A stretch of DNA of 64,000 nt from Candidatus Avilachnospira sp. (GTDB taxonomy: Bacteria; Bacillota; Clostridia; Oscillospirales; Oscillospiraceae): assembly GCA_045579045.1 (NCBI GenBank), contig JAZNLL010000027.1:4724-68723 (forward strand), given 5' to 3'. The notes beneath the pieces are model-generated. The model was not told the DNA's origin and made no database searches. It worked only from the letters and a program-made list of their open reading frames with translations. Made by a program: the position numbers and the translations under genes. Every line of letters starts with the position of its first letter. Positions within the stretch are counted from its first letter, which is position 1. Below, piece by piece: positions 1,445-39,362 of this stretch.

Positions 1445-1445
1445 C

Positions 1446-2519: not shown

Positions 2520-2726
2520 TTACTTTTCCACGGTGATGATGCAGTCGGGGCACATGGTGGCACAGAAACCACAACCGACGCAGCTTTCTGCATCCTTCAT
2601 CACGGCCGGGGAATAACCCTTTTTGTTGATGGATCCGGTGTCGATGGTCAGACAGCCCTTCTTACAGGCGCTGACACACAGGCCGCAGCCTTTGCACAGA
2701 TCGGTGTTGAATGTGAGCTTTGGCAT
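2520..2726 (-). CDS. 2-oxoacid:ferredoxin oxidoreductase, delta subunit (2x[4Fe-4S] ferredoxin)
   Basis: 68 aa with two CxxCxxCxxxC(P) motifs (CKGCGLCVSAC, CVGCGFCATMCP). AGGAGG RBS upstream. Confidence 0.8.
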   Translation of the reverse strand: MPKLTFNTDLCKGCGLCVSACKKGCLTIDTGSINKKGYSPAVMKDAESCVGCGFCATMCPDCIITVEK

Positions 2727-2746: not shown

Positions 2747-3412
2747 TTACGTAGGTAAATCAAAATATTTTTCCTGCAGTTCCATGGAAAGCACAAGGCC
2801 GTCCAGTTTTCGGGCAACTTCTGCGGTTGCTGCATGCATCCACAGGGGCAGACCGGACAAACGGCAGAGGGAATTCAGTTTCTCTCCGGCACCGGTGACC
2901 GTTTCACAGGTGGTCTCCGGACCCAGATTGGTGTTGTGTACGATGCAGGTGAACTTCATTCCGCAGGCAGCTTCGATCTCACGCATCACTTCCAGGGCTT
3001 CTTCCGCCGTGGTTGTCAGAGGACGGCAGAAGTTGACCACAAAGGCCATGCGATAGTTATTCTCCTCCAGAATGAAGGGGGTAAATCTGCCAAGGGCATA
3101 GGCACCACGGTCATCGCCGCCGATGTCCATAACACCGTAGGTGCTTTGATCCTGCACCAAGCGGTAGCTCTCAGCAGGCAATGCCGGCAGATCCACATTG
3201 GTATTGGCAAACTTGGGAGAGATCAGATCCACACCGGCCTGCTCCAGCACCTTGGCGCTGTCCTTGGTGCGGAAATAGGGATTGACGATATCCAGATCGG
3301 CAATGCAGACCTTCTTCCCCTCCCCTGCCAGCTGCAGGGCATAGTTGACGGCAATGTTGGTCTTGCCGCTGCCATAATGACCTGCGAACAGAGTCAGTCG
3401 TTTGTGTTCCAT
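2747..3412 (-). CDS. P-loop NTPase (MinD/ParA/CooC-like), function unknown
   Basis: Walker A GHYGSGKTNIAV near the N-terminus and DLD Walker-B-like segment. ATG at 3412 (alternative GTG at 3418) abuts or overlaps the upstream synthetase stop (3415..3417). Confidence 0.6.
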   Translation of the reverse strand: MEHKRLTLFAGHYGSGKTNIAVNYALQLAGEGKKVCIADLDIVNPYFRTKDSAKVLEQAGVDLISPKFANTNVDLPALPAESYRLVQDQSTYGVMDIGGDDRGAYALGRFTPFILEENNYRMAFVVNFCRPLTTTAEEALEVMREIEAACGMKFTCIVHNTNLGPETTCETVTGAGEKLNSLCRLSGLPLWMHAATAEVARKLDGLVLSMELQEKYFDLPT

Positions 3413-3414
3413 GA

Positions 3415-5703
3415 TCACAGCTGCTTTCTGATAATTTTACCGCTGGTGGTCTTGGGAAGGCTTTCCCGGAACTCCACGATACGGGGATACTTATAAGGAG
3501 CGGTTCTGCGCTTGACGTAGTCCTGGATCTCCTTTTTCAGCTCGTCGGTACCCTTGAAGTCCTTCACCAGCACAATGCTGGCCTTGACCACCTGACCGCG
3601 AACCTCATCGGGAGCAGCGGAAACACCACATTCCAGAACATAAGGCAGTTCCATGATGACATTTTCGATTTCGAAGGGTCCGATGCGATAGCCGGAGGAC
3701 TTGATGACATCGTCCACACGACCCACATACCAGAAGAAGCCGTCCTCGTCCTTCCACGCCAGATCGCCGGTATGGTAGAAACCGTCGCGCCAGGTTTCTG
3801 CGGTGACCTCCGGGTTGCCCTCGTAGGCATAGCTGAGGCCGCAGGGCAGACCCTTGGAAATATCGATACAAATTTCGCCGTTTTCACCGACACCCACTTC
3901 GTTGCCATCGGCATCCAGCAGATGCACATCGTACAGGGGCACGGGCTTACCCATGGAGCCGATCTTGTGGCTGGAACCGGTCAGGTTACCGATGATCAGC
4001 GTGCTTTCGGACTGTCCGAAACCTTCCATGATCTCCAGACCTGTTGCCTTCTGGAACTGGCGGAAGACCTCCGGGTTCAGCGCTTCGCCGGCGATGGAGG
4101 CATGCTCGATGGAGCTGAGATCGAAGCGGCTCAGATCCTGCTTGATCAGCATGCGGTACATGGTAGGCGGTGCGCAGAAAGTAGTGATGCCGTACTTCTT
4201 GAACAGAGGCAAAATCTTCTCTGCATCGAACCGGTCAAAGTCATAGACAAAGATGGCAGCTTCGCACAGCCACTGGCCATAGAGCTTGCCCCACAGGGAC
4301 TTTGCCCAGCCTGTATCGGAGATGGTCAGGTGCAAGCCATCGGGATTGACCTGATGCCAATACTTGGCGGTGATAAAATGACCCAGCGGGTATTTATAGT
4401 TATGTGCAGCCATTTTGGGATAGCCGGAAGTGCCGGAAGTAAAGAACATCAGCATGGGATCGGAGCCGCAGGGGGCATCCTCCGCTCTTGCAAAATTGCT
4501 GTTGTACATGGTGTATTCTTCGTTAAAGTCGTGCCAGCCTTCCCGGCTGCCGCCGACCATGATCTTCAATGCCAGATCGGGACAAACTGCCGCAGCGGCA
4601 TCCACCTCGGAAGCAACATCGCCGTCAGCCGTACAGACAACGGCTTTTACCTTACCTGCCGTAAAGCGATAGGAGAAATCCTTTTCCTGCAGCTGATTGG
4701 TGGCAGGAATGACCACAGCACCCAGCTTGTGCAGACCCAGAATGGAGAACCAGAACTGATAGTGACGCTTCAGCACCAGCATGACGCGGTCGCCGCGCTT
4801 GATGCCCAGCGCCTTAAAGTAGTTGGCAGCTCTGGCGGATTCCTTTTTGATATCCTTGAAGGTGAAGCGGCGCTCGGTGCCATCCTCGCTCAGATGGAGC
4901 ATCGCCAGCTTTTCCGGCTTCCGCTCTGCCAGCGCATCCACCACATCAAAGGCAAAGTTGAACTTCTCTTCGTTCTTGAAATCAATGGCGGTCAGCTTGC
5001 CATCGGTTTCGGTGGGAATGATGAAGTCGCGGTAGATACGACCCTGATCGTCTTCCCGATGGGACTGACGGACAGGCTTGGCCTCTGTGGCAGCCTGCTC
5101 TTCCATTCTGGCTGCCTGATTGCGCAGAACAATGGCATAGAAGGAGCAGTCCTCACCGTCTACGGCGATCATACCGTGAGGAGTGGAGGAATCGTAGTAA
5201 ATACAGTCACCGGCACGGAGGACTTCCGTATGGCCGCCGATCTGGATGCGCATGCTGCCACTGATGACGATATCACATTCCTGACCTTCATGGGTCACCA
5301 GTTCGATATCTTCATACTCGGCACCGGGACGGTAGTTCAGTTCCATATACAGGGGCAGTGCAATACGGTTGCGGAAGTCTGCTGCCAGGTTGTAGCCCAC
5401 CATATGGTGTGCTTCTTCGATGCGCTGGCCCATGCCCTTTCGAGTCAGAGCATAAGAACGAAGCTTGGGGCTTCGGCCTTCCAGCAGGTCGCTCATATCA
5501 ACGCCAAAAGAAAGGCTGCAATGATACAGGAATGCAATGCTGAGGTTCTGGTTGCCGCTTTCGCACTGCAAGTATTCTTCCACGCTCACGCCGACGCGGG
5601 AAGCCATTTCCTCCACGGTAATACCGGTGATCTCACGAAGTTCGCGAATTCTATCGGCAGTTTCCTTTATTTTATAAGTCATGCCGGTCATGTTCTGTTC
5701 CAT
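3415..5703 (-). CDS. XRE-HTH + cupin + AMP-dependent acyl-CoA synthetase fusion (paralog 1)
   Basis: ORF 3415..5739 trimmed to ATG 5703 (MEQNMTG, GAGGTG RBS). Residues ~10-70 form an HTH_3-like segment (IRELREITGITVEEMASRVGVSVEEY). Residues ~120-200 are cupin-like (GQECDIVISGSMRIQIGGHTEVLRAGDCIYYDSSTPHG). The remaining ~540 aa are an AMP-binding enzyme (FFTSGTSGYPK, YHTGD, SGKIIR). Confidence 0.8.
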   Translation of the reverse strand: MEQNMTGMTYKIKETADRIRELREITGITVEEMASRVGVSVEEYLQCESGNQNLSIAFLYHCSLSFGVDMSDLLEGRSPKLRSYALTRKGMGQRIEEAHHMVGYNLAADFRNRIALPLYMELNYRPGAEYEDIELVTHEGQECDIVISGSMRIQIGGHTEVLRAGDCIYYDSSTPHGMIAVDGEDCSFYAIVLRNQAARMEEQAATEAKPVRQSHREDDQGRIYRDFIIPTETDGKLTAIDFKNEEKFNFAFDVVDALAERKPEKLAMLHLSEDGTERRFTFKDIKKESARAANYFKALGIKRGDRVMLVLKRHYQFWFSILGLHKLGAVVIPATNQLQEKDFSYRFTAGKVKAVVCTADGDVASEVDAAAAVCPDLALKIMVGGSREGWHDFNEEYTMYNSNFARAEDAPCGSDPMLMFFTSGTSGYPKMAAHNYKYPLGHFITAKYWHQVNPDGLHLTISDTGWAKSLWGKLYGQWLCEAAIFVYDFDRFDAEKILPLFKKYGITTFCAPPTMYRMLIKQDLSRFDLSSIEHASIAGEALNPEVFRQFQKATGLEIMEGFGQSESTLIIGNLTGSSHKIGSMGKPVPLYDVHLLDADGNEVGVGENGEICIDISKGLPCGLSYAYEGNPEVTAETWRDGFYHTGDLAWKDEDGFFWYVGRVDDVIKSSGYRIGPFEIENVIMELPYVLECGVSAAPDEVRGQVVKASIVLVKDFKGTDELKKEIQDYVKRRTAPYKYPRIVEFRESLPKTTSGKIIRKQL

Positions 5704-5721
5704 AATACACCTCAATAAAGG

Positions 5722-5996
5722 CAAAAAAGCCCGTCTCAAAGATTGATTCCTTGAGACGAGCTGTGATTCTTAGCCCGCGGTACCACTCAAATTGCATTTG
5801 CCTCACGGCAAATACCACTCATTGGGTGCCAACACACCCTAAGCACTGACGCAGCTGACGCGTGGAGGTTCTACGGCAAACGCTTTCTTCCTCCCGGCTC
5901 CGGAGCGACAAACTGCAGTTCCTACCATGGCTTGCACCAACCGCCAATTCTCTGAGGCAGAACTTCCGCTGTTTTTCTCCATCCTCGCTTTTGGAT
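5722..5996 (-). promoter_or_regulatory. T-box leader, specifier read as GUC (Val), with its promoter just upstream
   Basis: Promoter: -35 TTGACA (6031..6026), 17 nt, -10 TATGAT (6008..6003). AG bulge AGAGAA plus distal loop GGUUGGUGCAA. T-box core AAUUUGAGUGGUACCGCGGG (5793..5774). Terminator CUCGUCUCAA...UUGAGACGGG + U6 (5760..5723). Specifier GUC at 5909..5907 in the register GAUGGAG...GUC-G-CUCC-GGAG. UGGU bulge implies an A73 tRNA. Confidence 0.85.
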
Positions 5997-6060: not shown

Positions 6061-8328
6061 TTAGAGCTTATTGCGCTGGATCTTACCGGAGATCGTCTTG
6101 GGCAATTCCGTACGGAACTCCACGATACGGGGATACTTGTAGGGAGCCGTTCTGGTCTTGACGTAGTTCTGGATCTCCTTCTTCATTTCTTCGGTACCTT
6201 CGGTACCGGGAACCAGCACGATACAGGCCTTGACGACCTGACCGCGAACCTCATCGGGGGCAGCACAGACACCGCATTCCAGAACGTAGGGCAGTTCCAT
6301 GATGGTGCTTCCGATCTCGAAGGGCCCGATGCGGTAGCCGGAGGACTTGATGACATCGTCGGCACGTCCGACATACCAGTAGTAGCCATCTTCATCCCGC
6401 CAGGCCACATCGCCCGTATGGTACATACCGTCATGCCAGACATCGTTGGTGGCTTCTTCGTTGCGGTAGTAGCCCAGGAAGACACCGCAGGTGGGCTTGG
6501 GATCGGTACGGATGACGATCTCGCCGTTGATACCATCTTCCACAGGGTTGCCGTCGGCATCCACAATGTCGATGCCGTAGCCGGGAACCGGCTTGCCCAT
6601 GGCACCGGGCTTGATGATGGCGCCATAGAGGTTTGCAATACCCAGAGTCATTTCCGTCTGGCCAAAGCCTTCGTGGATCCGCAGACCCGTCGCCTTTTCG
6701 AACTGATAGAAGACCTCCGGATTCAGTGCCTCACCGGCAGTGGTGGCATGGTGGATGGAGCTGAGATCGTAACCGCTGAGATCCTGCTTGATCAGCATGC
6801 GGTACATAGTGGGAGGTGCGCAGAAGGTGGTGATGTTGTACTTTGCGAACATGGGCAGAATTTTCTCTGCATCAAAGCGGTCAAAGTCGTAGGTAAACAC
6901 AGCACCTTCGCAGAGCCACTGGCCGTAGAGCTTGCCCCACAGTGCCTTGCCCCAGCCGGTTTCGGAGATAGTAAAATGCAGACCGTCACGCTCACACAGA
7001 TGCCAGTACTTGGCAGTGACATAGTGACCCAGGGCATACTTATAGGAATGGGTTGCCATCTTGGGATAGCCGGTGGTACCGGAAGTGAACAGCATCAGCA
7101 TGGGATCGCTGCCGCAGGGAGCATCTTCCTCCCGGACATAGCGACGGGAGAAGAGGCTGTACTCCTGATCGAAATCATGCCAACCTTCTGCCTTGCCGCC
7201 GACCATGATCTTCGTCATGCTCATGCCGGCAGTCTTTTCTGCCAGATCGATCTGACCGGCCGTATTGCCGTCAGCCGTGCAGAGAACTGCACTCACATCT
7301 GCAGCCTGGAAGCGGTACACGAAATCCTTTTCCATCAGCTGATTGGTAGCAGGGATGGCGATGGCACCCAGCTTGTGCAGACCCAGAATGGCGAACCAGA
7401 ACTGGTAATGGCGCTTCAGCACCAGCATGACGCGGTCGCCGCGCTTGATGCCCAGAGACTTGAAGTAGTTGGCGCTCTGGCTGGAAGCATCCTTGAAATC
7501 CTTAAAGGTGAAGCGGCGCTCGGTCATGTCATTGGCGACATGGATCATGGCGAGCTTCTCAGGCTCACGGCGAGCGATGGCATCCACTGTATCAAATGCG
7601 AAGTTATAAGTATCTTCGTCGGAGAAGGTAATATTCTGCAGCGCACCGTTTTCGTCTTCCTGTGCATTGACAAACTTGTCGCACAGCAGCTTCTGCTGAG
7701 ACTTGCCCTTGCGGCTCAAACCGGTATACAGAGGCTGGTCGGTGGTATCAGAAGCCATAATCATGGACAGGAACACGCAGTCCTGACCGTCAATGGCCAG
7801 CTGACCGTGAGGGGTGGAGGACTTGAAGAAGATGCTGTCGCCTTCACGCAGAGTCTCTTCATGGTCCCCGACCTTGATCCGCATAGCACCCTTGATGACC
7901 AGATTGTATTCCTGACCGGCATGGGTAACGGTATGGATGGGCTTATTCTGCAGTTCCTCGGAATATTTGTAGGTAACCCAGTAAGGAGTTGCCAGCTTCT
8001 TGCGGAACATGGGAGCCACGTCCTGAATGATAATGCCATCCTCACTGGCAGTCACCAGACCCTTGCCGCGGCGAGTCACTGTATAGCCGGACAGCTTGGC
8101 GCTGTGGCCTTCCAGCAGAACAGTAATCTCAACACCGAAAACCTTTGCGCACTTATGCAGGAACGTAAAAGGCAGATCCACCGTGCCGGTTTCGTACTGA
8201 CGGTAGCTTTCTTCCGAAACCTCGGTCAGCTCTGCCATCTTCTGAGTGCTGTAACCCAAAATGTCACGCATACCCTGAATACGTGCGGCGATATCCATCA
8301 GCTGTGTTGTGGGATTCATGTTACTCAT
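6061..8328 (-). CDS. XRE-HTH + cupin + AMP-dependent acyl-CoA synthetase fusion (paralog 2)
   Basis: ORF 6061..8505 trimmed to ATG 8328 (MSNMNPTT); the upstream part of the ORF is the T-box leader. Same three-part architecture as 3415..5703 and collinear with it (LFTSGTTGYPK, YHTGD, SGKIQR). Confidence 0.8.
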   Translation of the reverse strand: MSNMNPTTQLMDIAARIQGMRDILGYSTQKMAELTEVSEESYRQYETGTVDLPFTFLHKCAKVFGVEITVLLEGHSAKLSGYTVTRRGKGLVTASEDGIIIQDVAPMFRKKLATPYWVTYKYSEELQNKPIHTVTHAGQEYNLVIKGAMRIKVGDHEETLREGDSIFFKSSTPHGQLAIDGQDCVFLSMIMASDTTDQPLYTGLSRKGKSQQKLLCDKFVNAQEDENGALQNITFSDEDTYNFAFDTVDAIARREPEKLAMIHVANDMTERRFTFKDFKDASSQSANYFKSLGIKRGDRVMLVLKRHYQFWFAILGLHKLGAIAIPATNQLMEKDFVYRFQAADVSAVLCTADGNTAGQIDLAEKTAGMSMTKIMVGGKAEGWHDFDQEYSLFSRRYVREEDAPCGSDPMLMLFTSGTTGYPKMATHSYKYALGHYVTAKYWHLCERDGLHFTISETGWGKALWGKLYGQWLCEGAVFTYDFDRFDAEKILPMFAKYNITTFCAPPTMYRMLIKQDLSGYDLSSIHHATTAGEALNPEVFYQFEKATGLRIHEGFGQTEMTLGIANLYGAIIKPGAMGKPVPGYGIDIVDADGNPVEDGINGEIVIRTDPKPTCGVFLGYYRNEEATNDVWHDGMYHTGDVAWRDEDGYYWYVGRADDVIKSSGYRIGPFEIGSTIMELPYVLECGVCAAPDEVRGQVVKACIVLVPGTEGTEEMKKEIQNYVKTRTAPYKYPRIVEFRTELPKTISGKIQRNKL

Positions 8329-8349: not shown

Positions 8350-8612
8350 AATAAAAAAACGCCTCAAGAATTTCTTCTTGAGACGAGTCATTCTATACCC
8401 GCGGTACCACTCAAATTGCAGCCGTAGCTGCCACTTCAGACTCCAATAAGTCCTATCCCTTAACGCGGGCAAACGGGAAAGCCTGGCAGCATCTGCTCGG
8501 CTCACCGGCTCGGAAGTGATGGGCTTTCGGGCAACAAACCGTCGACTCGCACCAACCGTCGACTCTCTGAAGATTCATACACCTAGCCGTCTTCGTCACA
8601 GCCTTTTTCGAT
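8350..8612 (-). promoter_or_regulatory. T-box leader, specifier read as AUC (Ile), with its promoter just upstream
   Basis: Promoter: -35 TTGACA (8649..8644), 17 nt, -10 TAGATT (8626..8621). K-turn/base GACGAAG, AG bulge AGAGAG, distal loop GGUUGGUGCGA. Specifier AUC at 8520..8518 in the register AUC-A-CUUC-CGAG, identical to the thrS leader. T-box core (8417..8398). Terminator hairpin + U7 (8388..8353). Confidence 0.85.
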
Positions 8613-8719: not shown

Positions 8720-8991
8720 ATACACATTAGAAAAAACGTTGACGGAAAATCCTTTCTGTTCAGAAGCTTCAGAGAGCCGGTGGCTGCTGCGAACCGGTGC
8801 GGAGAACAGATCGGTCTGCTTCCTGAGTTGGCTCTGTGAACCCGTTTCGGACGGTCAGTAATGGAGCCCGGCCTCCTCCGTTACCGGGATAGGACTTACT
8901 GGAGTCCGATGAGAGACCCCGTTCCGGGGTAATCAGGGTGGTACCGCGAATAATTTTCGTCCCTGAGGTCTTGTGACCTCAGGGATTTTTT
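8720..8991 (+). promoter_or_regulatory. T-box leader, specifier probably CUG (Leu), with its promoter just upstream
   Basis: Promoter: -35 TTGACA (8685..8690), 17 nt, -10 TTAAAT (8708..8713). Base GACGGAA, AG bulge AGAGAG (8771..8776). F-box CCGUUA (8878..8883). T-box core AAUCAGGGUGGUACCGCGAA (8931..8950). Terminator CCCUGAGGUC...GACCUCAGGG + U6 (8961..8991). Specifier CUG 8816..8818 in the register CUG-C-UUCC-UGAG; the base after the codon is C rather than the usual purine, so confidence in the codon is lower. Confidence 0.8.
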
Positions 8992-9013
8992 CATTCCAAA
9001 GGAGCTGTATATT

Positions 9014-10420
9014 ATGAAAATGATCAAACTGTCCGATGTCACCATGAAGCAGGTTGTCGACGGTTTCAGCCTGTCTTTCAAAGAGAAGATCGAACTGGCA
9101 AAGCTGCTGGATAAATTGGGAGTCTGTGTCATCGAACTGGAAGGCATCGAAAACGCCCGCATTGACAGTCTGCGAATCAAGTCCATCGCTTCGTCTGTGA
9201 CTAACAGCATTGTTGCCGTTCCCGTTCAGTTGACGGCAGACAGCCCCGCTCAGGTTTGGTCTGCTCTGCAGCAGGCAAAGCTTCCCCGCCTGCAGGTCTG
9301 CGGTGCCGTCAGCGCCGTTCAGATGGAGTATCTGTTCCACAAAAAGCAGGATGCCATGCAGAAAGCCATCGTGGACACCATCACCGCCTGCAAGGCCTTG
9401 TGTGCCGATGTGGAGTTCCTGGCCGACGATGCCACCCGTGCAGATCCCGCGTTCCTCGCCTCCACTTTGAAAGCCGCTATCGCTGCCGGTGCGACAACCG
9501 TCACCGTCTGTGATACTGCCGGTTCCATGCTGCCTGCCGAGTTCGCTCAGTTCATCAAGGAACTGTATGAGGCCGTTCCCGAAATGAAGAATGTCAATGT
9601 GGGTGTCAGCTGCTGTAACACCCTGTCCATGGCTGATGCCTGTGCCATCGCCGCTGTCGGTGAAGGTGTCACCGAACTGAAATCTGCCGCATATCCCATC
9701 GATGTTGCCAGCCTTGCCAATCTGGCAAAACTGCTGTCCGCCAGAGGGGATTGCTTCCATGTAAGCACTTCCGTTCAGATGACCCAGCTGAGCCGCATCA
9801 TGGACCGTGTGTATCAGATCTGCCAGACCGGTAGCACAAAGGGTTCTGCAATGACCGCAGCCCAGACAGATTCCGATATTTATCTGACCGCCCACGACGA
9901 CGTTGCAGCCGTGACCAAGGTTGCCGAACAGTTGGGTTACGATCTTTCTGAAGACGACAGCATGAAGGTCTATGAAGCCTTCAAGCAGATCGCCGCCAAG
10001 AAAGAACAGGTCAGCTCCAAGGAACTGGATGCCATTATCGCCTCTGCCGCATTGCAGGTACCTCCCACCTACAAGCTGGATACCTTCGTGATTACCTCCG
10101 GCAACACCATTTCTTCCACCGCTCATATCAAGCTGATGAAGAACGGTCAGCCCATGGAAGGTGTTTCCATCGGAGACGGCCCCATCGATGCCGCCTTTGT
10201 TGCCATCGAAAACATCACCGGCTGCCATTACGAGCTGGATGACTTCCAGCTGCAGGCTGTGACCGAGGGCCGCAGCGCCATGGGTCAGACCGTGGTGAAA
10301 CTCCGCAGCGGCGGCAAGGTCTATTCCGGCAAGGGCATTTCTACGGACATTGTGGCAGCCGGTATCCATGCCTACCTGAGTGCTCTGAACAAGATCGTTT
10401 ATGAGGAGGAAGAAGCATGA
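9014..10420 (+). CDS. LeuA/CimA-family (HMGL-like TIM barrel + LeuA regulatory domain) protein with degenerate active site
   Basis: 468 aa, collinear with 2-isopropylmalate synthase. DTTLRDGEQ is replaced by DVTMKQVVD and H-x-H-D-D by SCCNT. The C-terminal GDGPIDAAFVAIENI...GISTDIVAAGIHAYLSALN is a well-preserved LeuA_dimer regulatory domain. Confidence 0.75.
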   Translation: MKMIKLSDVTMKQVVDGFSLSFKEKIELAKLLDKLGVCVIELEGIENARIDSLRIKSIASSVTNSIVAVPVQLTADSPAQVWSALQQAKLPRLQVCGAVSAVQMEYLFHKKQDAMQKAIVDTITACKALCADVEFLADDATRADPAFLASTLKAAIAAGATTVTVCDTAGSMLPAEFAQFIKELYEAVPEMKNVNVGVSCCNTLSMADACAIAAVGEGVTELKSAAYPIDVASLANLAKLLSARGDCFHVSTSVQMTQLSRIMDRVYQICQTGSTKGSAMTAAQTDSDIYLTAHDDVAAVTKVAEQLGYDLSEDDSMKVYEAFKQIAAKKEQVSSKELDAIIASAALQVPPTYKLDTFVITSGNTISSTAHIKLMKNGQPMEGVSIGDGPIDAAFVAIENITGCHYELDDFQLQAVTEGRSAMGQTVVKLRSGGKVYSGKGISTDIVAAGIHAYLSALNKIVYEEEEA

Positions 10421-12930
10421 GACTCTCATTCTCTACCAGAGGCTGGCCCAGCTTAACCTGGGATGAAATGGTAGATACCGCTCTGGACATGGGCTTTACC
10501 GGTATCGAAGTGTATAATCTGCCTAAATTTGATGAGATGCTGGCCAAAGGCGGCCCCTTCCACCAATACCAGACAGCCGCCACTGTTCGTGATCTTCGGG
10601 AAAAGAAGCTGACGATCCCCTGCTTCGACACCTCCTGCGATCTGTCCGCAGATCCCGATGCCGTAGCAGTTCTGACCAATTTGATCGAAATCGCCAAAAA
10701 TGCACAAGTCAAGCACGTAGTCGCCTGCGCGCTGAGCGACAAGGAAGAAGTCGTTCGTGATGCATTATGTCAACTTGTTCCTGTGGCAGAAAAGGCCGGT
10801 GTTTCTCTGCTTCTCAAGACCAGCGGCATCTATGCCGACACCGCCCGTCTGCGGAATATGCTGGATCAGTTCGCCAGCGACAATCTGGGTGCCCTTTGGG
10901 ATGTCCACCATCCTTACCGGGATTTTGGTGAAAGCGGCGATGCCACCATCAAGAACCTGGGTTCCTATGTTTGCCATGTCCACCTGCGCGATTCCGATGA
11001 CGAAGGCACCTATCAGCTCATCGGTGAAGGCACCATGCCCATTGCCGATGTGATGCGTGCCCTTTCCTCCGTCAATTACGATGGTTTCATCTCTTTGGAA
11101 TGGAAGCCGGAATGGCTGGAGGATCTGCAGGACCCGGAGATCATCTTCCCCTACTTCGTCAATTACATGGCCCGGTTCCATTCCACCCGGGGCATGAAGA
11201 AGAAGCTCTATCCCAACCACGACGGTACCGGTCAGTACATCTGGAAAAAGGATGAACTCATCAACCTGACCTTCCCTCAGGTTCTGGACCGTGTGGCAGA
11301 AGAGTTCCCGGACCAGTACTGCTTTAAGTACACCACCCTGGATTACACCCGAACCTATGCCCAGTTCCGCGAAGATGTGGATCGGTTCGCCAGAGCACTG
11401 GTGTCCATGGGCGTCAAGGCCGGCTCCAAGGTAGCCATCTGGGCAACCAATGTGCCTGCCTGGTTCATCACCTTCTGGGCAACTACCAAAATCGGTGCCG
11501 TTCTGGTCACAGTCAATACTGCCTATAAGATTCACGAAGCGGAATATCTGCTCCGCCAGTCCGACACCCACACGCTGGTCATGATCGACAGCTGTCTGGA
11601 TTCCAACTATGCCCGGATCATCAATGAACTCTGTCCCGAAATCGCCAAGACCAAGGCCGGCGATCCTCTCCACTGCAAGAGACTCCCCTTCCTGCGCAAT
11701 GTCATCACCGTTGGCTTCAAGCAGCCCGGCTGTCTGACCTTCGACGAGGCCATGGCAAGATATGAACTGGTCAGCCGGGAGCAGGTCGCTCAGATGGCTG
11801 CCGCCGTCCGTCCCGACGATGTCTGCAACATGCAGTATACCTCCGGTACCACCGGTTTCCCGAAGGGTGTTATGTTAACTCACCACAACGTTGTCAACAA
11901 CGGCAAATGCATCGGTGACCGCATGGGTCTTTCCACTGCCGACCGCATGATGATTCAGGTTCCTATGTTCCACTGCTTCGGCATGACCCTTTCCATGACC
12001 TCCTCCATGACCCATGGCGCCACCATGTGTCCCATGCCCTACTTCTCCGCTACATCTTCCCTCGCCTGCATCAATCAGGAGAAGATCACAGTTTTCAATG
12101 GTGTTCCCACCATGTTCATTGCCATGTTCAACCATCCGGATTACCGGAAAACCGATTTCTCCCATATGCGAACCGGCATCATGGCAGGTGCAGGCTGTCC
12201 TCCCGAACTGATGCGCAGAGCCGCACAGCCTGATGAAATGAACATGTACGGCATTGTCAGTGTTTATGGACAGACCGAATGTGCTCCCGGCAACACCATG
12301 AGTTCCTGGACGGATTCTCTGGAAGTCCGCACCGACACCGTCGGCTATGCCTTCCCCCATGTGCAGTGCAAGATCATCGATCCCGAAACCGGAGAAGAAG
12401 TCGGTCCCGGTGTCAACGGTGAATTCTGTGCCAAGGGCTACAACACCATGAAGGGTTATTACAAAATGCCTCAGGCAACTGCCGACACCATTGATGCAGA
12501 AGGCTGGCTCCATTCCGGCGACCTGGCCTGCAGGGATGAAGACGGCAACTATCGGATCACCGGCCGTCTGAAAGATATGATTATCCGCGGCGGTGAAAAC
12601 ATCTATCCCAAGGAGATTGAGGAATTTATCTACACCCATCCCCAGACCAAGGATGTTCAGGTCATCGGTGTTCCCGACAAGAAATACGGCGAAGAGATCA
12701 TGGCCTGTATCATTCTGAAGGAACCCGGCTCTGTGACCGTGGAAGAAATGACCGCCTACATCAAGGCCAGCATGGCACGGCATAAGGTTCCCAAATACAT
12801 CTCCTTCGTGGACAGCTTCCCCATGAATGCCGCAGGTAAGATTCTGAAGTATAAAATGCGCGAAGCTGCCGCTAAGGAACTGGGCTTGGTCGGTGACGGT
12901 GCCGATACGGCAGGCCCCGGCAAAGTATAA
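10417..12930 (+). CDS. Xylose-isomerase-like TIM barrel (sugar-phosphate isomerase/epimerase fold) fused to an AMP-dependent acyl-CoA synthetase (paralog 3, FadD-like)
   Basis: 837 aa. The N-terminal ~260 aa have AP_endonuc_2-like features (MRLSFSTRGW..., HVHLRD, ISLEW). The C-terminal ~570 aa have YTSGTTGFPKG, GYYK, SGD, GRLKD, GKILK. Start overlaps the upstream stop (ATGA). Confidence 0.8.
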   Translation: MRLSFSTRGWPSLTWDEMVDTALDMGFTGIEVYNLPKFDEMLAKGGPFHQYQTAATVRDLREKKLTIPCFDTSCDLSADPDAVAVLTNLIEIAKNAQVKHVVACALSDKEEVVRDALCQLVPVAEKAGVSLLLKTSGIYADTARLRNMLDQFASDNLGALWDVHHPYRDFGESGDATIKNLGSYVCHVHLRDSDDEGTYQLIGEGTMPIADVMRALSSVNYDGFISLEWKPEWLEDLQDPEIIFPYFVNYMARFHSTRGMKKKLYPNHDGTGQYIWKKDELINLTFPQVLDRVAEEFPDQYCFKYTTLDYTRTYAQFREDVDRFARALVSMGVKAGSKVAIWATNVPAWFITFWATTKIGAVLVTVNTAYKIHEAEYLLRQSDTHTLVMIDSCLDSNYARIINELCPEIAKTKAGDPLHCKRLPFLRNVITVGFKQPGCLTFDEAMARYELVSREQVAQMAAAVRPDDVCNMQYTSGTTGFPKGVMLTHHNVVNNGKCIGDRMGLSTADRMMIQVPMFHCFGMTLSMTSSMTHGATMCPMPYFSATSSLACINQEKITVFNGVPTMFIAMFNHPDYRKTDFSHMRTGIMAGAGCPPELMRRAAQPDEMNMYGIVSVYGQTECAPGNTMSSWTDSLEVRTDTVGYAFPHVQCKIIDPETGEEVGPGVNGEFCAKGYNTMKGYYKMPQATADTIDAEGWLHSGDLACRDEDGNYRITGRLKDMIIRGGENIYPKEIEEFIYTHPQTKDVQVIGVPDKKYGEEIMACIILKEPGSVTVEEMTAYIKASMARHKVPKYISFVDSFPMNAAGKILKYKMREAAAKELGLVGDGADTAGPGKV

Positions 12931-13004
12931 CCGGATCACCCTCTCCCCTGATGCAGATGTTCTGTATCAGGGGCAGCATTTGACTTTGAAAAGAGATAAT
13001 CGCA

Positions 13005-13718
13005 ATGAAATGGAAAGAATTTTTTGCCGGTGTTAAAGCCGGCATGCCGGTATGCATCGGATATTTCTCCGTCAGCTTCGGTTTCGGTGCCATGGCTGTG
13101 GCACAGGGTCTGACCATTTGGCAGGCCATTCTGATCTCTGCCTCCAATCTGACCAGCGCAGGTCAGTTCGCAGGTCTGACGGTCATTTCCGCCGGTGCAG
13201 CCATTGTAGAAATGATACTGACCCAGCTGGTCATCAACAGTCGCTATGCACTGATGAGTCTTGCTCTGGGCCCTCGGTTCGGCCCCAATGTAGGAACAGG
13301 AAAGCGGCTTTTTGCCGCCTTCTTCAACACAGACGAGGTCTTTGCTCTGGGCATGTCCAGAGGTAAAAACCTGACAACCGCCTTCTTTGTCGGTGCCGGT
13401 GTGATCTCTGCCGTTGGCTGGACAAGCGGTACCGCCATGGGAGCCATCGCCGGCTCTCTGCTGCCGGAATCTATTCGTATGGCACTGGGTGTCATGCTCT
13501 ACGGTATGTTCATCGCCATTGTCGTTCCACAGGCAAAAGAAGAAAAGCCGCTTTTGGCTTCCGTGGTGCTGGCATTGGTCTTTAGCTGCCTGTTTGCATG
13601 GCTTCCCCTTCTGAAGCAGGTCTCTGCCGGTCTGGCAATCGTCATCTGCACGGTTGCAGCAGCTTCCGTGTGTGCCCTGCTGTTCCCCGTGAAGGAAGAA
13701 GAGGAGGCTGCACCATGA
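13005..13718 (+). CDS. azlC: AzlC-family branched-chain amino acid transport protein
   Basis: 237 aa polytopic protein. N-terminus FFAGVKAGMPVCIGYFSVSFGFGAMA...SNLTSAGQFAG is typical of AzlC. Confidence 0.8.
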   Translation: MKWKEFFAGVKAGMPVCIGYFSVSFGFGAMAVAQGLTIWQAILISASNLTSAGQFAGLTVISAGAAIVEMILTQLVINSRYALMSLALGPRFGPNVGTGKRLFAAFFNTDEVFALGMSRGKNLTTAFFVGAGVISAVGWTSGTAMGAIAGSLLPESIRMALGVMLYGMFIAIVVPQAKEEKPLLASVVLALVFSCLFAWLPLLKQVSAGLAIVICTVAAASVCALLFPVKEEEEAAP

Positions 13719-14023
13719 GTATTTATGTTTATATTCTTGTCATGGCAGTCACGACGTATCTGATCCGGGCACTGCCTCTTACCCTGCTGAAGAAGCCCAT
13801 TCAAAACCGGTTTTTGAAATCATTTTTGCACTATGTTCCTACCGCCTGTCTGACCGCAATGACCTTTCCCGCCATCCTTTCCGCCACAGAAAACTGGATC
13901 AGTGGTGCCATCGGTCTGGCCGTCGGTGTTCTGCTGGCATTGAAAAAGAAAAGCCTGATCGTGGTGGCCGTCGCAAGCTGCGCAGCCGTGTTCCTCACGG
14001 AACAGATCATCAAATATATATAA
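13715..14023 (+). CDS. azlD: AzlD-family branched-chain amino acid transport protein
   Basis: ORF 13598..14023 trimmed to ATG 13715 (MSIYVYILVMAVTTYLIRALP), overlapping the azlC stop (ATGA). ~100 aa hydrophobic partner of AzlC. Confidence 0.75.
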   Translation: MSIYVYILVMAVTTYLIRALPLTLLKKPIQNRFLKSFLHYVPTACLTAMTFPAILSATENWISGAIGLAVGVLLALKKKSLIVVAVASCAAVFLTEQIIKYI

Positions 14024-14025
14024 TA

Positions 14026-14055
14026 AATATCCCCCCGCATAGCGGGGGGATATTT
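14026..14055. terminator. Bidirectional intrinsic terminator between convergent azlD and the ACT-MBL gene
   Basis: AATATCCCCCCGC-ATA-GCGGGGGGATATT palindrome flanked by A/T runs. Confidence 0.75.
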
Positions 14056-15511
14056 ATTTTACAGAATAGTCCGCTGGTGATCCATGGGAGCCGAAAATCT
14101 TCCAATCTCCAACGCCCAATCTTCGCATAATGGCTTTTCTTTCATCACTGCAGAGCTTGGGGTCTGTATCTACAGAAGTCATCAGGATCGGTGCATACTG
14201 ATTGTACGCAGCCTGTTCCGAAGTCAGCCCGTGCGTGTTGATATAGACATCACCTGTAAACGCAATATTGTTATGATAGTCGATCAGAACGATTTCGCCC
14301 GGCAAATGGCCCCCTTTTCCTTCGTACACTTCAAAATGCAAGTCACCGAAGTCAAAAAAACCGATCTGTGTCAGCGGCTCCCGCAGATCCGGGATGTTTT
14401 GCCACGGCGTTTTCAGCTTTTCGGGGTCGATAGCCTTGTAGGATGTAAGGGTTTTACAAATGCTGATATACGGTTTATGCAGCGGATTCTGCTCCCGGAA
14501 ACCGTTGTCTCCGTAGAATTCATTCTGCAGACTCAACGCAGATCTGCAGCTGACGATCACTTCATCAAATTCGTTCATCAGACCACAGTGATCCACATCT
14601 GCATGGGTTAGGAGCAAGCACTTGGGAAGCCTGTTAAATTCGGGAACAACCGTCTGCATTACCGAAAGCATTTCATCTCTGTAGCAGGCATAGCCGCTGT
14701 CAATGCAAAGTATCTTCCCAAAACTCTTGATGATCGCAGTATTGCTTCCGCAAGCAGGTTCGATCAGAATGATTTCTGTATTCGGTGTGATGGTATGTGT
14801 TGTGATTCTGGGAACAAATCGGTCACTCTTAGACTTCGCCAGCAGTTCGGCAAATTTGCTGATACTGTCAAAAGTCCGGTAAGGCGATAACCCCTGTTCA
14901 TCCAGCGTCTGCATCGCAAGATTGGAGGATACCAAAAGGCACTGCTTCTGTTCATCACTGAGATCTAGCAGCTGCGAAAGACCGCGTACGAAGGCACTGT
15001 AGAAAATGCTGTTGTCGTAAGCTCGTTCGGAACTGTTGTAATCAATCGCTCTGACTTTACACAGCCGTTCCGCCTGCTCAATAAAAGCCGTGATTCGATC
15101 GGGATCTTCCACATGCAGACCCATTTTGAAATGCTGATAATCCGTCCCGTTTTCCTGAGAATTGATGTAGGAGATATTGAAATTGAATGTGTTAATCAGT
15201 TCAAGGACATCCGTAACACTGCCGGGGACATCTCTCAGCCAGAACTCAAGCAAAACAATGCTGGAATTTCCGGCATTATCCTGAAGATATCCGATTTTTT
15301 CCAGTTCCAGATCCGCTTTTAGTATTTGCTCCTCTGTGCCGTCCACATCCAAAAACAGCATATGAGAGTCCACCGCTTTGTCATAGCTGACACGGGTAAT
15401 ATTTATGCCAAGATCCGCAAAGCATTTGCTGGCCTTCAGAAATGCTCCGATATGGTTTGGCATCGAGGTTGCATAGGTTTTTTTCACAGTAATCACCGCC
15501 AATTGCATCAT
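14054..15511 (-). CDS. Tandem ACT-like domains fused to an MBL-fold metallo-hydrolase
   Basis: 485 aa. Two ACT-like beta-alpha-beta-beta-alpha-beta segments in the first ~160 aa. C-terminal MBL signature LLLTHADVDHCG, later GGHLPGE, FTGD, GSHG. Confidence 0.6.
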   Translation of the reverse strand: MMQLAVITVKKTYATSMPNHIGAFLKASKCFADLGINITRVSYDKAVDSHMLFLDVDGTEEQILKADLELEKIGYLQDNAGNSSIVLLEFWLRDVPGSVTDVLELINTFNFNISYINSQENGTDYQHFKMGLHVEDPDRITAFIEQAERLCKVRAIDYNSSERAYDNSIFYSAFVRGLSQLLDLSDEQKQCLLVSSNLAMQTLDEQGLSPYRTFDSISKFAELLAKSKSDRFVPRITTHTITPNTEIILIEPACGSNTAIIKSFGKILCIDSGYACYRDEMLSVMQTVVPEFNRLPKCLLLTHADVDHCGLMNEFDEVIVSCRSALSLQNEFYGDNGFREQNPLHKPYISICKTLTSYKAIDPEKLKTPWQNIPDLREPLTQIGFFDFGDLHFEVYEGKGGHLPGEIVLIDYHNNIAFTGDVYINTHGLTSEQAAYNQYAPILMTSVDTDPKLCSDERKAIMRRLGVGDWKIFGSHGSPADYSVK

Positions 15512-15543: not shown

Positions 15544-15978
15544 TCACCGTTCTTCTCTGCATTTCACAACCGCCTCGGTCACATTGCTTATGACATGGAC
15601 ATTGTGTTGGTTGTATACTTCAATGGTGATCTCCACAATTCCGTTTCTGCTGCTGCGCTGCACAAGATTGGTGATCTCCGCTTTGCCGCGGAGAATATCT
15701 CCTGCATAGACTGGCCTGTGCCATTCAATTCTGGTGGATTTTCCTGCAATCAGTGCTTCTCCCACCAGATCCTGCTCCAGATACTTTGCCCACACCGACA
15801 TAAAGGACATTACACCGGGTGCGATCAGCTGACCGAAGGGAGAGGCTTTTGCATATTCCTCATCGGTGTGCAGAGGGATATTGTCGTAATCACGGGCAAA
15901 CGCCATCATTTTTTCTTTTTCGATAACCGTCGGTGCGATCTCAACGGTCATACCCAGTTTTAAATCTTCAAAATACAT
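15544..15978 (-). CDS. MaoC-like (R-specific enoyl-CoA hydratase / hot-dog fold) dehydratase
   Basis: 144 aa. IPLHTDEEYAKASPFGQLIAPG is the MaoC dehydratase signature. Confidence 0.75.
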   Translation of the reverse strand: MYFEDLKLGMTVEIAPTVIEKEKMMAFARDYDNIPLHTDEEYAKASPFGQLIAPGVMSFMSVWAKYLEQDLVGEALIAGKSTRIEWHRPVYAGDILRGKAEITNLVQRSSRNGIVEITIEVYNQHNVHVISNVTEAVVKCREER

Positions 15979-15988
15979 AGCTTTCCTA

Positions 15989-16777
15989 TTACAGTTTCAA
16001 AATCTGCTCAGCGGTCTTGTATGCGATCTGTTCTTTCTGTTCATCGGTCAGCTTGAGCTGCAGGAAGACTTCAACCTCGTGCACCGGGTCCCACATGGGA
16101 TAATCGGAACCGAAGGCCATCCGCTCCGCGCCGTACAGGTTAATGTAGTTTTCGGCTTCACCCGGTGCCATAAACATCATGGAGCTGGAAATATCCATCA
16201 CGCAGGAGGTATCCTGCAGCAGTTCCCGGGCTGTCTCCGGCATGCTGTAGCCGCCAAAGTGGGCAGCGATCACATCCAGCTTCGGAAATTGTTCCATGAT
16301 CTTCCGGAGCCTTGCCGGATGGGAGTAGTCATACCGCTTGTCACCCATGTGAAGCATGACGGGAACATGCCCCGAAATTGCTTCGTACATAGGAAACAGT
16401 CTCGGATCGTCTATGGCAAAGCGTTGGGAATCGGGATGCATTTTAATTCCCTTGACCCCCAAAGCCAAAATCCGTTCCACTTCATCCATCAGCCCATCCA
16501 TGGCAGCATGTACTGTTCCAAAGGGAATAAAACAGGCATTGGCCTGTGCTCGTTGCTGAATAAAGTCGTTGATATGCTGCACCCGATCCGGACGGATGGC
16601 TACCGGCAGCACCACAAATCTGTCAATGCCGGCCTGACGGCCTCTCTCCAGAAGCAAGCCCTCTGTTCCGTCCATGGCAGGATCGCCAAGGCCTTCGTAA
16701 AATTCTTTTACGCTGGCAGAAGCCTTTTGGGCAATGTCATCGGGATAAATATGGGAGTGGATATCTATGATCTTCAT
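15989..16777 (-). CDS. Amidohydrolase-family (TIM-barrel metal-dependent hydrolase) protein
   Basis: 262 aa. N-terminal IDIHSHIYP metal-binding HxH motif, plus later HMHPD and AAHFGG. Confidence 0.7.
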   Translation of the reverse strand: MKIIDIHSHIYPDDIAQKASASVKEFYEGLGDPAMDGTEGLLLERGRQAGIDRFVVLPVAIRPDRVQHINDFIQQRAQANACFIPFGTVHAAMDGLMDEVERILALGVKGIKMHPDSQRFAIDDPRLFPMYEAISGHVPVMLHMGDKRYDYSHPARLRKIMEQFPKLDVIAAHFGGYSMPETARELLQDTSCVMDISSSMMFMAPGEAENYINLYGAERMAFGSDYPMWDPVHEVEVFLQLKLTDEQKEQIAYKTAEQILKL

Positions 16778-16899: not shown

Positions 16900-17565
16900 G
16901 GGTAAAACCCTTTGTTACTAGCTTGCGCGTCTCGTCGCGCAAGTACGATCCGCCACCTGCGAAAATCTATTGCTTGCTACCCGTAAACGGGTTTAGTAAT
17001 TACCCATCGTCAACTGTTCTCCGGCCTTATCTTCATCTAACTGGTAACGGATATATTCTTCAATCTTTTTTGCATTCTTTCCAGCCGTATCCACGAAATA
17101 TCCTCTACACCAAAACTCTCTGTTGCGATATTTATACCGCAGCTCCAAACTTCTCATAGATCATTAGACTGCTTTTTCCTTTTAGGTATCCCATAAAATT
17201 CGATACTGCTACTTTCGGCGGTATCTCCACCAGCATATGTACATGGTCTGGGCACACTTCCGCTTCGATTATCCGTATCTTTTTCCATTCACATAGCGTC
17301 CTCAGTATTTTTCCTATTTCCTGCCGTTTTTCTCCATAGAATACTTTTCTCCGATACTTCGGCGCAAACACAATATGATATTTGCAATTCCAGCTTGTAT
17401 GCGATAAACTATTCATGTCATTCATCTGAATGGCCTCCCTTTGCTTTTTTATTTTGCTGTTGGCGGACCGCATCTTTATCTTAAAGCAAAGGGAGTTTTT
17501 CTGTCTACATGATCGCCATAAGGCTTCTTTTGAACCACTCGCCCAGCGAGTGGTTTTCTGCATAC
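16900..17565 (-). mobile_element. IS200/IS605-family insertion sequence (IS200-type, tnpA only), boundaries approximate
   Basis: Y1-transposase gene flanked by end hairpins: AACCACTCGC-CCAG-CGAGTGGTT (17533..17555), CTCCCTTTGCTT...AAGCAAAGGGAG (~17435..17495), CTTGCGCG-TCTCGT-CGCGCAAG (16921..16942), ACCCGTAAACGGGT (16978..16991). Confidence 0.7.
16993..17425 (-). pseudogene. tnpA: IS200-type Y1 transposase TnpA, interrupted by a frameshift
   Basis: MNDMNSLSHTSWNCKYHIVFAPKYRRKVF...HVHMLVEIPP (HUH motif) reads to a stop at 17132. The conserved C-terminus LRYKYRNREFWCRGYFVDTAGKNAKKIEEYIRYQLDEDKAGEQL continues in another frame down to 16993. The frame switch lies near 17138..17146. Confidence 0.75.
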
Positions 17566-17600: not shown

Positions 17601-17674
17601 TGGAGCGGGATACGGGAGTCGAACCCGCCTATGCAGCTTGGGAAGCTGCCGTTCTACCGATGAACTAATCCCGC
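17601..17674 (-). tRNA. tRNA-Gly (anticodon CCC)
   Basis: Cloverleaf folds by hand: acceptor GCGGGAU/AUCCCGC, D arm GUUC/GAAC, anticodon arm GCAGC-UUCCCAA-GCUGC, T arm GCGGG-UUCGACU-CCCGU, discriminator U, encoded CCA. A terminator hairpin follows (17567..17600). Confidence 0.9.
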
Positions 17675-39092: not shown

Positions 39093-39261
39093 CCATTCCT
39101 ATATTTTTAACCTCACACAGTATACTATTTTATGCATAAAAATACTGCCCAAAGTTTCGTTATGTTGCACAGATAATTTGTGCAGAATTTTGTAATTTTC
39201 CCCAAGATTTTTAGAGTTGCTTTATTGACAGAAATGCACTTTTCAGTTAAGATAAGTGCAA

Positions 39262-39362
39262 GGACTTCTGTAACTGACGGAAATGTGGAGCACCACAGGG
39301 GAGCAGAAGTTGATATTTGCCGACCGTCTGGGCTGTTCTGAGGAGATTTCCGTCAGAACTGC
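39262..39362 (+). promoter_or_regulatory. ZTP (pfl-motif) riboswitch with terminator expression platform
   Basis: P1 CUUCUG (39265..39270) / CAGAAG (39304..39309). ACUGACGGAAAUGUGGAGCACCACAGGGGAGC core. 3' subdomain CCGACCGUCUGGGC (39319..39333) whose CCGUC can pair with GACGG. GUUCUGA...UCAGAAC hairpin + U-rich tail before purO. Confidence 0.8.

Follow-up and report, generated by a model that had tools for sequence, protein, structure and literature searches.

A 64,000-nucleotide stretch of a Candidatus Avilachnospira sp. genome (contig JAZNLL010000027.1, positions 4,724 to 68,723; hereafter the window) carries an open reading frame (ORF) homologous to 2-isopropylmalate synthase, LeuA, in which catalytic elements of the enzyme have been replaced or deleted and the C-terminal regulatory domain has been kept. 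This LeuA-like gene follows a T-box leader with a leucine specifier and directly precedes a gene for a TIM barrel fused to an AMP-forming acyl-CoA synthetase, termed the partner here. On the opposite strand, two further acyl-CoA synthetases stand behind isoleucine and valine T-boxes, the latter leader also preceding the genes of a 2-oxoacid:ferredoxin oxidoreductase (Table 1). The locus is considered here as a candidate route from branched-chain fatty acids to amino acids, in which the LeuA-like protein may serve as a non-catalytic, leucine-sensing subunit.

Table 1. Features of the locus, with coordinates in the window (aa, amino acids)
Feature	Coordinates	Strand	Remarks
LeuA-like gene (putative pseudoenzyme)	9014..10420	+	468 aa
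Ribosome-binding site AAAGGAG ahead of the LeuA-like ORF	8998..9004	+	
Degenerate TIM barrel of the LeuA-like protein	9014..9823	+	aa 1-270
Degenerate first motif	9035..9064	+	aa 8-17; DVTMKQVVDG in place of DTTLRDGEQxPG; metal-binding Asp gone
Degenerate HxH motif	9608..9622	+	aa 199-203; SCCNT in place of HCHND
Shortened linker of the LeuA-like protein			aa 271-330
LeuA-type regulatory domain of the LeuA-like protein	10004..10417	+	aa 331-468
GDGPIDAAF loop	10172..10198	+	aa 387-395; at helix N-terminus; 93-99% conserved in the family, identical to true LeuA
GKGISTDIVAAGIHAYLSALN segment	10328..10390	+	aa 439-459; at second helix N-terminus; LeuA-type
Shine-Dalgarno GAGGAGG of the partner gene	~10403..10409	+	
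ATGA stop/start overlap	10417..10420	+	Between the LeuA-like and partner genes
Partner protein	10417..12930	+	837 aa; xylose-isomerase-like TIM barrel (aa 1 to ~270) fused to AMP-forming acyl-CoA synthetase (aa ~280-837)
Partner TIM domain	10417..11226	+	
Leu T-box leader	8730..8967	+	Rfam RF00230, 107.1 bits (gathering score 93); drives the LeuA-like gene, then TIM/synthetase
Leu specifier CUG	8816..8818	+	
Conserved T-box sequence of the Leu leader	~8934..8948	+	
Intrinsic terminator of the Leu T-box	8959..8986	+	12-bp stem and T run; overlaps 3' part of the T-box model
azlC	13005..13718	+	With azlD, last genes of the Leu T-box operon; Pfam AzlC
azlD	13715..14023	+	Pfam AzlD
Operon terminator	14030..14049	+	Hairpin; can work in both directions
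Ile T-box, specifier AUC	8376..8608	-	Rfam, 102.5 bits; divergent; controls the fusion gene at 6061..8328
Val T-box, specifier GUC	5749..5994	-	82.5 bits, E 2.3e-18, under gathering score 93; controls the fusion gene at 3415..5739, then the oxidoreductase genes
XRE-type helix-turn-helix, cupin and AMP-forming acyl-CoA synthetase fusions	3415..5739 and 6061..8328	-	Pfam; fusion kept in many related loci
ParA/Mrp-like P-loop NTPase	2747..3418	-	Weak Pfam matches; directly upstream of oxidoreductase genes in ~30 related loci
Four-subunit 2-oxoacid:ferredoxin oxidoreductase	delta 2520..2726, alpha 1446..2507, beta 689..1492, gamma 153..689	-	Pfam POR_N, PFOR_II, TPP_enzyme_C, POR

Loss of the catalytic elements of LeuA

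The homology to LeuA that a preliminary description, made from the sequence alone, had assigned to this ORF proved to be real. Pfam matched HMGL-like (PF00682) at aa 18-228 (E = 1.5e-30), in agreement with a TIM-barrel fold, and LeuA_dimer (PF08502) at aa 332-461 (E = 1.7e-31; profile positions 1-130 of 131). An AlphaFold2 model built from a 63-sequence alignment had a predicted local distance difference test (pLDDT) score of 92.3, with disorder only at aa 277-286, and Foldseek comparison of this model placed the barrel on LeuA catalytic domains with root-mean-square deviations of 1.6-2.0 Å and target TM-scores of 0.92-0.94. The full chain, including the regulatory domain, matched Mycobacterium tuberculosis LeuA, and the top match of the model was a methylthioalkylmalate synthase (6E1J). 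For all NCBIfam/TIGRFAM models of LeuA, CimA and NifV the protein fell far under the cutoff, with best scores of 298 bits against a cutoff of 532 (NF002086) and 267 bits against 599 (TIGR00973).

Motifs were compared using HMMER alignments to LeuA structures (3EWB, 3RMJ and 3EEG) and a MAFFT alignment with a canonical LeuA in which all motifs are present (P0269). Both alignments returned the changes already listed in the preliminary description, namely DTTLRDGEQ to DVTMKQVV, HxH to SCCNT and the disappearance of GERAGN, where YPIDVAS with a 4-residue deletion takes the place of the G(I/L)GERAGN loop; both also bore out the scaffold segments that it had named as retained (DVEFLADDATRA and VTVCDTAG). 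The positions of the metal triad (RDG Asp and both HxH His) are occupied by Q13, S199 and C201, and among the 2-oxoacid contacts the Arg of RDG is K12 and the Glu of PED is D138, with the Thr of DTVG present as T168. Beyond the differences listed earlier, the alignment with P0269 shows a gap of about 35 residues in accessory subdomain I, which takes out the segment AFxHxSGIHQDG that bears the catalytic His in LeuA, and the LGKHSGR of LeuA becomes LTAHDD. As a result of the subdomain I deletion the protein is about 50 residues shorter than LeuA. Pfam HCS_D2 had no match in the LeuA-like protein, whereas it was matched in the true synthase of a related locus (L029). The protein fails four features that define LeuA: the metal triad, the substrate contacts, subdomain I and the curated cutoff. 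Public annotation names it either ‘hypothetical protein’ or ‘2-isopropylmalate synthase’; judged by these features the latter is a wrong filing, although the predicted fold and the ancestry are those of LeuA.

An exhaustive search of 50%-identity cluster representatives recovered 361 clusters at E < 1e-30. Among the matches listed, about 105 were full-length (455-480 aa), with identity falling to about 30%, and canonical LeuA sequences (511-524 aa) showed up only at about 35% identity. Conservation was counted over 107 family representatives. The metal-binding Asp was kept in nine of these, the first metal-binding His in two, the second in one and the full Asp/His/His triad in none. A rescue of the ligands in a shifted register was rejected, with any His within two columns of the HxH site in only 4/107 and the full triad in none, and the ligand loss proposed from the window protein was thereby confirmed. 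The substrate-contact positions (R of RDG, E of PED, T of DTVG) were variable (T168 in 33/107). Scaffold residues D8, T10, S100, E134, D139, R142 and D167 were present in at least 85% of the representatives, and F22, K111, D139, E134 and R142 were near-invariant in the barrel. Cys200 occurred in 58 of the 107, and position 201 was mostly Ser.

Mean pairwise identity in the family was 66% for the regulatory domain, 41% for the barrel and 38% for the linker. The ratio of nonsynonymous to synonymous substitution rates (dN/dS), taken from close pairs, ranged over 0.05-0.18 in the barrel and 0.02-0.11 in the regulatory domain, values that are rough because dS was saturated in every pair. With catalytic and metal elements lost, and their positions variable across a large family under purifying selection, the suggestion of a pseudoenzyme in the preliminary description stands, and the loss of catalysis in the family is well supported by these comparisons. 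Two longer LeuA-like representatives were also observed, one in which DTTLCDGEQ is kept and HxH is gone (P0265) and one in which the metal ligands are kept and the HxSGIHQ segment is gone (P0243); given these two, LeuA paralogues may have lost catalysis more than once.

Conservation of the regulatory domain

The regulatory domain is the most constrained part of the LeuA-like family. Residues G439, G441, S443, T444, D445 and N459 were at least 93% conserved and identical to LeuA, and the GDGPIDA and GxGISTDI loops, which cap helices in the AlphaFold2 model, were 93-100% conserved, above the rest of the domain. In the window protein both GDGPIDAAF and GISTDIVAAGIHAYLSALN matched LeuA in the alignment. 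The earlier characterization of the C-terminal LeuA_dimer domain as well conserved agrees with the full-length PF08502 match and with motifs kept in at least 93% of the family. In M. tuberculosis LeuA, the leucine pockets lie at the dimer interface of the regulatory domain with the carboxylate between the N-termini of two helices, and a loop of the GDGPIDAAF type forms part of the amino-acid binding site (PMC11057210).

In BLASTP comparisons the domain matched LeuA regulatory domains with E-values of 1e-21 to 1e-35; a CimA-type neighbour and the Leptospira citramalate synthase domain, which binds Ile, were matched at only about 1e-6 to 1e-7. The sole match in a PDB sequence search was a weak one to the Leptospira domain (3F6G, 3F6H; profile E = 7e-4), and M. 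tuberculosis LeuA was reached by fold comparison only. By its signatures the domain is of the LeuA type and not of the CimA type.

The partner synthetase and its gene order

A scan of one genome per GTDB species with the LeuA-like gene provided 80 related loci, all from metagenome-assembled genomes (gut, rumen and digesters) and spread over Oscillospiraceae, Lachnospiraceae, Acutalibacteraceae, Eggerthellaceae, Coriobacteriaceae, Bacteroidaceae/Cryptobacteroides and Synergistaceae, with at least four phyla represented. The TIM/synthetase fusion lay directly downstream of the LeuA-like gene in all 79 loci with a continuing contig, with a 4-nt gene overlap in 28/78 and gaps of <15 nt in most others. 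The ATGA overlap in the window indicates that the two genes are probably translationally coupled. The preliminary description had named the fusion as a likely partner from that overlap, and the constancy of the gene order agrees with this choice, such that a partnership of the two proteins is now well supported at the level of gene arrangement.

The partner matched AP_endonuc_2, AMP-binding and AMP-binding_C in Pfam and is publicly annotated as ‘AMP-dependent synthetase’. Its synthetase part was 69-96% identical across phyla, far above its own TIM domain or the barrel of the LeuA-like protein. The TIM domain, closest to the uncharacterised MJ1311 (3WQO), evolves as fast as the LeuA-like barrel and, from the residues found there, is partly degenerate at the canonical metal-ligand positions: the first Glu position is Glu in 53/78 and Lys in 22/78 relatives, including the clade of the window, and the others are Asp in 59/78 (Asn in 18/78), His in 75/78 and, for the last Glu, Glu in 59/78. 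Divergence of the LeuA-like barrel correlated with that of the partner TIM domain at r = 0.82, and a partial correlation of r = 0.69 was left once the synthetase part was controlled for; the correlation of the barrel with its own regulatory domain was weaker (r = 0.45). This pattern gives a weak hint of an interface between barrel and TIM domain.

An Amidohydro_2 protein (Pfam E = 6e-28) is encoded at 15989..16777 (-), on the opposite strand and a few kilobases away from the TIM/synthetase of the window, and about 30 related loci have an Amidohydro_2 gene as the next one downstream of their TIM/synthetase (e.g. L015 11933..12724 and L024 8215..8994).

T-box leaders and the three synthetase arms

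An intrinsic terminator was found at the 3' end of the Leu leader, and control of the LeuA-like gene is therefore predicted to occur by transcription attenuation. Upstream T-boxes were present in 46/77 loci, and the specifiers that could be parsed were CUC or CUG in 45/45; the specifier position in the window was set by comparison with these related leaders. The base that follows a T-box specifier is usually a purine. In the window this base is C (8816..8819, +), and a pyrimidine occurs also in a few related leaders (e.g. L007). The specifier of the Ile arm was AUC in 23/24 related leaders and that of the Val arm GUA or GUC in 10/11.

The window holds three paralogous acyl-CoA synthetases, each behind one T-box (Val, Ile and Leu), with the LeuA-like gene confined to the Leu arm. 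T-boxes turn genes on when the cognate tRNA is uncharged, and the genes downstream would therefore be supply genes. Several statements of the preliminary description could be followed here. T-box control of the LeuA-like gene is carried by the RF00230 score of 107 bits, above the gathering score, by the terminator and by the Leu specifier; its ‘three arms’ correspond to the Val, Ile and Leu T-boxes, one before each of the three synthetases; and its link to leucine is upheld by parsed specifiers that are all Leu codons, by the LeuA-type regulatory domain and by loci that lie beside leuC/leuA or a branched-chain aminotransferase.

Neighbouring pathway genes

The delta subunit of the four-subunit oxidoreductase consists of 68 aa with two Cys-rich ferredoxin-like motifs, as read from the ORF listing. 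A four-subunit oxidoreductase was located in the same cluster in about 30 loci, and in 16 other loci a single-chain PFOR-type oxidoreductase (~1170-1196 aa) followed directly after the TIM/synthetase (e.g. L010, 12128..16883 region; L029, 11996..15496; L033, 11991..15503). A class IV (branched-chain) aminotransferase was part of the cluster in 14 loci. In L010 the order of LeuA-like gene, TIM/synthetase, aminotransferase and oxidoreductase covers every step from branched-chain acid to amino acid, and from such arrangements it appears that the Leu arm can form a self-contained module with three or four genes. Canonical enzymes were found next to the pair in some loci, including leuC and a canonical leuA with all motifs after the pair in L017 (Eggerthellaceae; 11979..15427) and a catalytic CimA-type synthase with HCS_D2 directly upstream of it in L029 (Bacteroidaceae; 6369..7967). 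In the window, tblastn detected no true LeuA, LeuC, branched-chain aminotransferase or single-chain PFOR. The ParA/Mrp-like protein may serve the oxidoreductase in Fe-S maturation or assembly, and the XRE-cupin module may be the counterpart, in the Val and Ile arms, of the LeuA-like sensor.

The azlC and azlD genes that end the Leu T-box operon had no tblastn match in any of the 80 related loci, and their inclusion in the conserved system was rejected as window-specific. AzlCD is a branched-chain amino acid exporter. An exporter induced by leucine starvation would be odd, and AzlCD may import a precursor here. Just past the operon are an ACT-domain/metallo-beta-lactamase fusion (14054..15511, -) and a MaoC-like dehydratase (15544..15978, -). 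A hydroxymethylglutaryl-CoA (HMG-CoA) or methylglutaconyl-CoA route through these two proteins was considered and dropped, with neither gene in the 80 related loci. Further RNA elements of the window comprise a ZMP/ZTP riboswitch, a glycine riboswitch and two tRNA genes (39260..39340, +; 45864..45951, -; 17604..17674, -; 63524..63612, +). A 143-aa ORF beside a tRNA gene (17132..17563, -; HVHMLVEIPP) resembles, by eye, an IS200/IS605-type TnpA transposase.

Comparison with known systems

The LeuA-like protein shares the barrel fold of short-form LeuA (Neisseria meningitidis 3RMJ, Listeria 3EWB and Cytophaga 3EEG), with which it is collinear and has the VEFxxxDATR and CDTAG/PDTVG motifs in common; accessory subdomain II and LeuA_dimer are retained, and the loops GDGP(I/V)DA and GxG(I/L)STDI(V) are identical. 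Unlike LeuA, the family member is without the metal triad, RDGEQ, GERAGN and subdomain I, is about 50 residues shorter and falls under the NCBIfam cutoffs. The most conserved part of its family is the regulatory domain and not the barrel, and its gene always adjoins an acyl-CoA synthetase rather than leuBCD. The Leptospira interrogans CimA (3F6G, 3F6H) has a homologous regulatory domain (profile E = 7e-4) with the same beta-alpha-beta layout and a GDGxxDA loop, but is catalytic, and its signatures GDGGYDAF, PPGGKTDAL, PDQT and ATxKMLN do not occur in the LeuA-like protein. Methylthioalkylmalate synthase (6E1J) and plant isobutylmalate synthase likewise arose by duplication of LeuA and loss of one functional module; they are the opposite case, reported to have kept catalysis and lost allostery, whereas the LeuA-like family keeps the allosteric domain and loses catalysis.

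HisZ is a histidyl-tRNA synthetase paralogue without catalytic activity that serves the short-form ATP phosphoribosyltransferase HisG as its regulatory subunit. It is the closest system in concept, a dead paralogue of an amino-acid-recognising enzyme that acts in trans as end-product sensor for the first enzyme of a supply pathway. It differs in its unrelated fold and ancestry, and in that complex formation and histidine inhibition have been shown experimentally for HisZ, whereas their equivalents in the LeuA-like protein are predicted. IlvN/IlvH, the small subunit of acetohydroxyacid synthase, has an ACT fold and does not derive from a catalytic paralogue; it is likewise a dedicated non-catalytic subunit that binds an end-product amino acid and controls the product of the adjacent gene. 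MbcS of Staphylococcus aureus, an AMP-forming synthetase for exogenous short branched-chain acids (PMC10026030), has the function proposed for the partner. It feeds fatty-acid synthesis, however, and has no TIM-barrel fusion, LeuA-like partner or T-box. Full-text literature searches turned up no account of a LeuA pseudoenzyme or of this cluster, and none of acyl-CoA synthetases being controlled by T-boxes.

Proposed role and alternative explanations

A route to branched-chain amino acids through acid activation, reductive carboxylation and transamination is established biochemistry. In the proposed scheme, a synthetase would turn isobutyrate, 2-methylbutyrate or isovalerate into the acyl-CoA, the ferredoxin-dependent oxidoreductase would reductively carboxylate the acyl-CoA to the 2-oxoacid, and the 2-oxoacid would be transaminated to Val, Ile or Leu. 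A LeuA duplicate would have kept the barrel scaffold and the leucine-binding and dimerisation domain, lost catalysis and become a fixed partner of the synthetase. The Leu T-box would turn the Leu arm on when tRNA-Leu is uncharged. The pseudoenzyme would dimerise via its regulatory domain and bind leucine there, and with leucine plentiful it would, in complex with the synthetase, restrain the activation of isovalerate. The synthetase would be the committed, ATP-consuming step of the Leu arm, where allosteric control would act fast and atop T-box control, and salvage would come under end-product feedback of the kind that LeuA imposes on de novo synthesis.

This scheme builds on computed results, namely the loss of catalysis, purifying selection, the unvarying position of the synthetase gene next to the LeuA-like one, control by a Leu T-box and the metabolic context. 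A leucine-sensing subunit is favoured because feedback on the de novo route sits on LeuA, its committed step, and the committed step of the Leu arm would be the synthetase. From conservation and gene order we infer leucine binding and allostery and, with them, a physical complex, the sign of regulation and isovalerate as the substrate. About even confidence is placed in the proposal that the LeuA-like protein, a LeuA paralogue devoid of catalysis, senses leucine as regulatory subunit of an isovalerate-CoA ligase, within a pathway from branched-chain fatty acids to amino acids. A more elaborate version is put forward tentatively and at somewhat less than even confidence, namely that an exapted LeuA copy acts as a trans-acting leucine sensor gating the isovalerate-CoA ligase, possibly docked on the partly degenerate TIM domain of the ligase, at the committed step of a three-T-box pathway that would be widespread in gut and rumen anaerobes.

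Several points weigh against these proposals. The regulatory domain is also the dimerisation domain of LeuA, and oligomerisation by itself could explain why it is conserved. No LeuA-like partner accompanies the Val and Ile arms, where the synthetases have an N-terminal XRE-cupin module in its place, so a trans-acting sensor is not generally needed by such synthetases. The closest solved relatives of the partner synthetase are generic fatty-acyl and feruloyl-CoA synthetases, and the correlation between barrel and TIM domain could arise simply because phylogeny is followed more closely by rapidly evolving domains than by slow ones. Ligand binding, complex formation and regulation are read from conservation and gene order, the related loci all come from metagenome-assembled genomes, and dS was saturated in all pairs used for dN/dS.

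Some of these points lend themselves to a structural or assembly role, in which the protein would be a dimeric scaffold without ligand sensing that stabilises the TIM/synthetase or tethers it to the oxidoreductase, for example for acyl-CoA channelling, and in which the regulatory domain would be conserved solely as a dimerisation module. The Pfam name of the C-terminal domain, ‘allosteric (dimerisation)’, accommodates this role, as do the invariant order and translational coupling of the partner genes, the oxidoreductase gene that most sufficiently long loci have in the same cluster, and the correlated divergence of barrel and partner TIM domain. The best conserved elements are nonetheless GDGPIDA and GxGISTDI, the amino-acid site of LeuA, and their exact match to LeuA is not obviously needed for dimerisation alone; a pure scaffold is considered unlikely. 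Somewhat less probable again is a sensor of another ligand (4-methyl-2-oxopentanoate, isovalerate, isovaleryl-CoA, Ile or Val), or an activator instead of an inhibitor. In its favour, ketoisocaproate can occupy the barrel of M. tuberculosis LeuA (PDB 3HPS), the amino acid that is bound differs among related regulatory domains, being Ile for the Leptospira citramalate synthase domain (3F6G, 3F6H), and no computed result fixes the specificity. Against it, the contacts to a 2-oxoacid through Arg, metal and Thr are gone from the LeuA-like barrel, the signatures of the regulatory domain are LeuA-type and not CimA-type, and the readout of tRNA-Leu was the same in 45/45 leaders.

An enzyme with new chemistry in the Leu arm, its barrel using for example Cys200 or the invariant K111 or D139, would explain purifying selection on the barrel, the invariance or near-invariance of F22, K111, D139, E134 and R142, and the Cys-Cys that the window protein has where LeuA has HxH. 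It is judged improbable: no conserved replacement cluster occupies the former active site (Cys200 in 58/107, position 201 mostly Ser), the conserved barrel residues are scaffold residues that LeuA also conserves, the salvage pathway needs no further enzyme and, to our knowledge, all characterised members of the metallolyase superfamily use the Asp/His/His metal site. A decaying pseudogene or mis-annotated leuA remnant, to which the missing catalytic residues and the public names (‘hypothetical protein’ or ‘2-isopropylmalate synthase’) might point, is effectively refuted, because the ORF is intact and full-length in >100 divergent clusters from several phyla, dN/dS is far below 1, the predicted structure is of high confidence, and gene order, T-box and translational coupling are all conserved.

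Implications

The analysis defines a large unannotated protein family, the mis-naming of which may lead metabolic reconstructions to credit genomes wrongly with LeuA activity. It also delineates a conserved three-gene module of LeuA-like protein, TIM/acyl-CoA synthetase fusion and 2-oxoacid:ferredoxin oxidoreductase, extended in some loci by a branched-chain aminotransferase or by paralogous synthetases with Ile/Val T-boxes. The module is a concrete candidate for the formation of branched-chain amino acids from isovalerate, 2-methylbutyrate and isobutyrate by rumen and gut anaerobes, and makes the genetics and specificity of this pathway directly testable; if the assignment is correct, genes would have been found for a pathway known biochemically for decades. 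Should the sensor role hold, the family would be a natural example of a pseudoenzyme that keeps its allosteric domain and discards catalysis, the mirror image of LeuA-derived enzymes without a regulatory domain, and would supply the engineering of biosensors or pathways with a leucine-responsive module ready for use. It would also be the first case in which the allosteric domain of a biosynthetic enzyme has been reused for feedback on the salvage route to the same amino acid.

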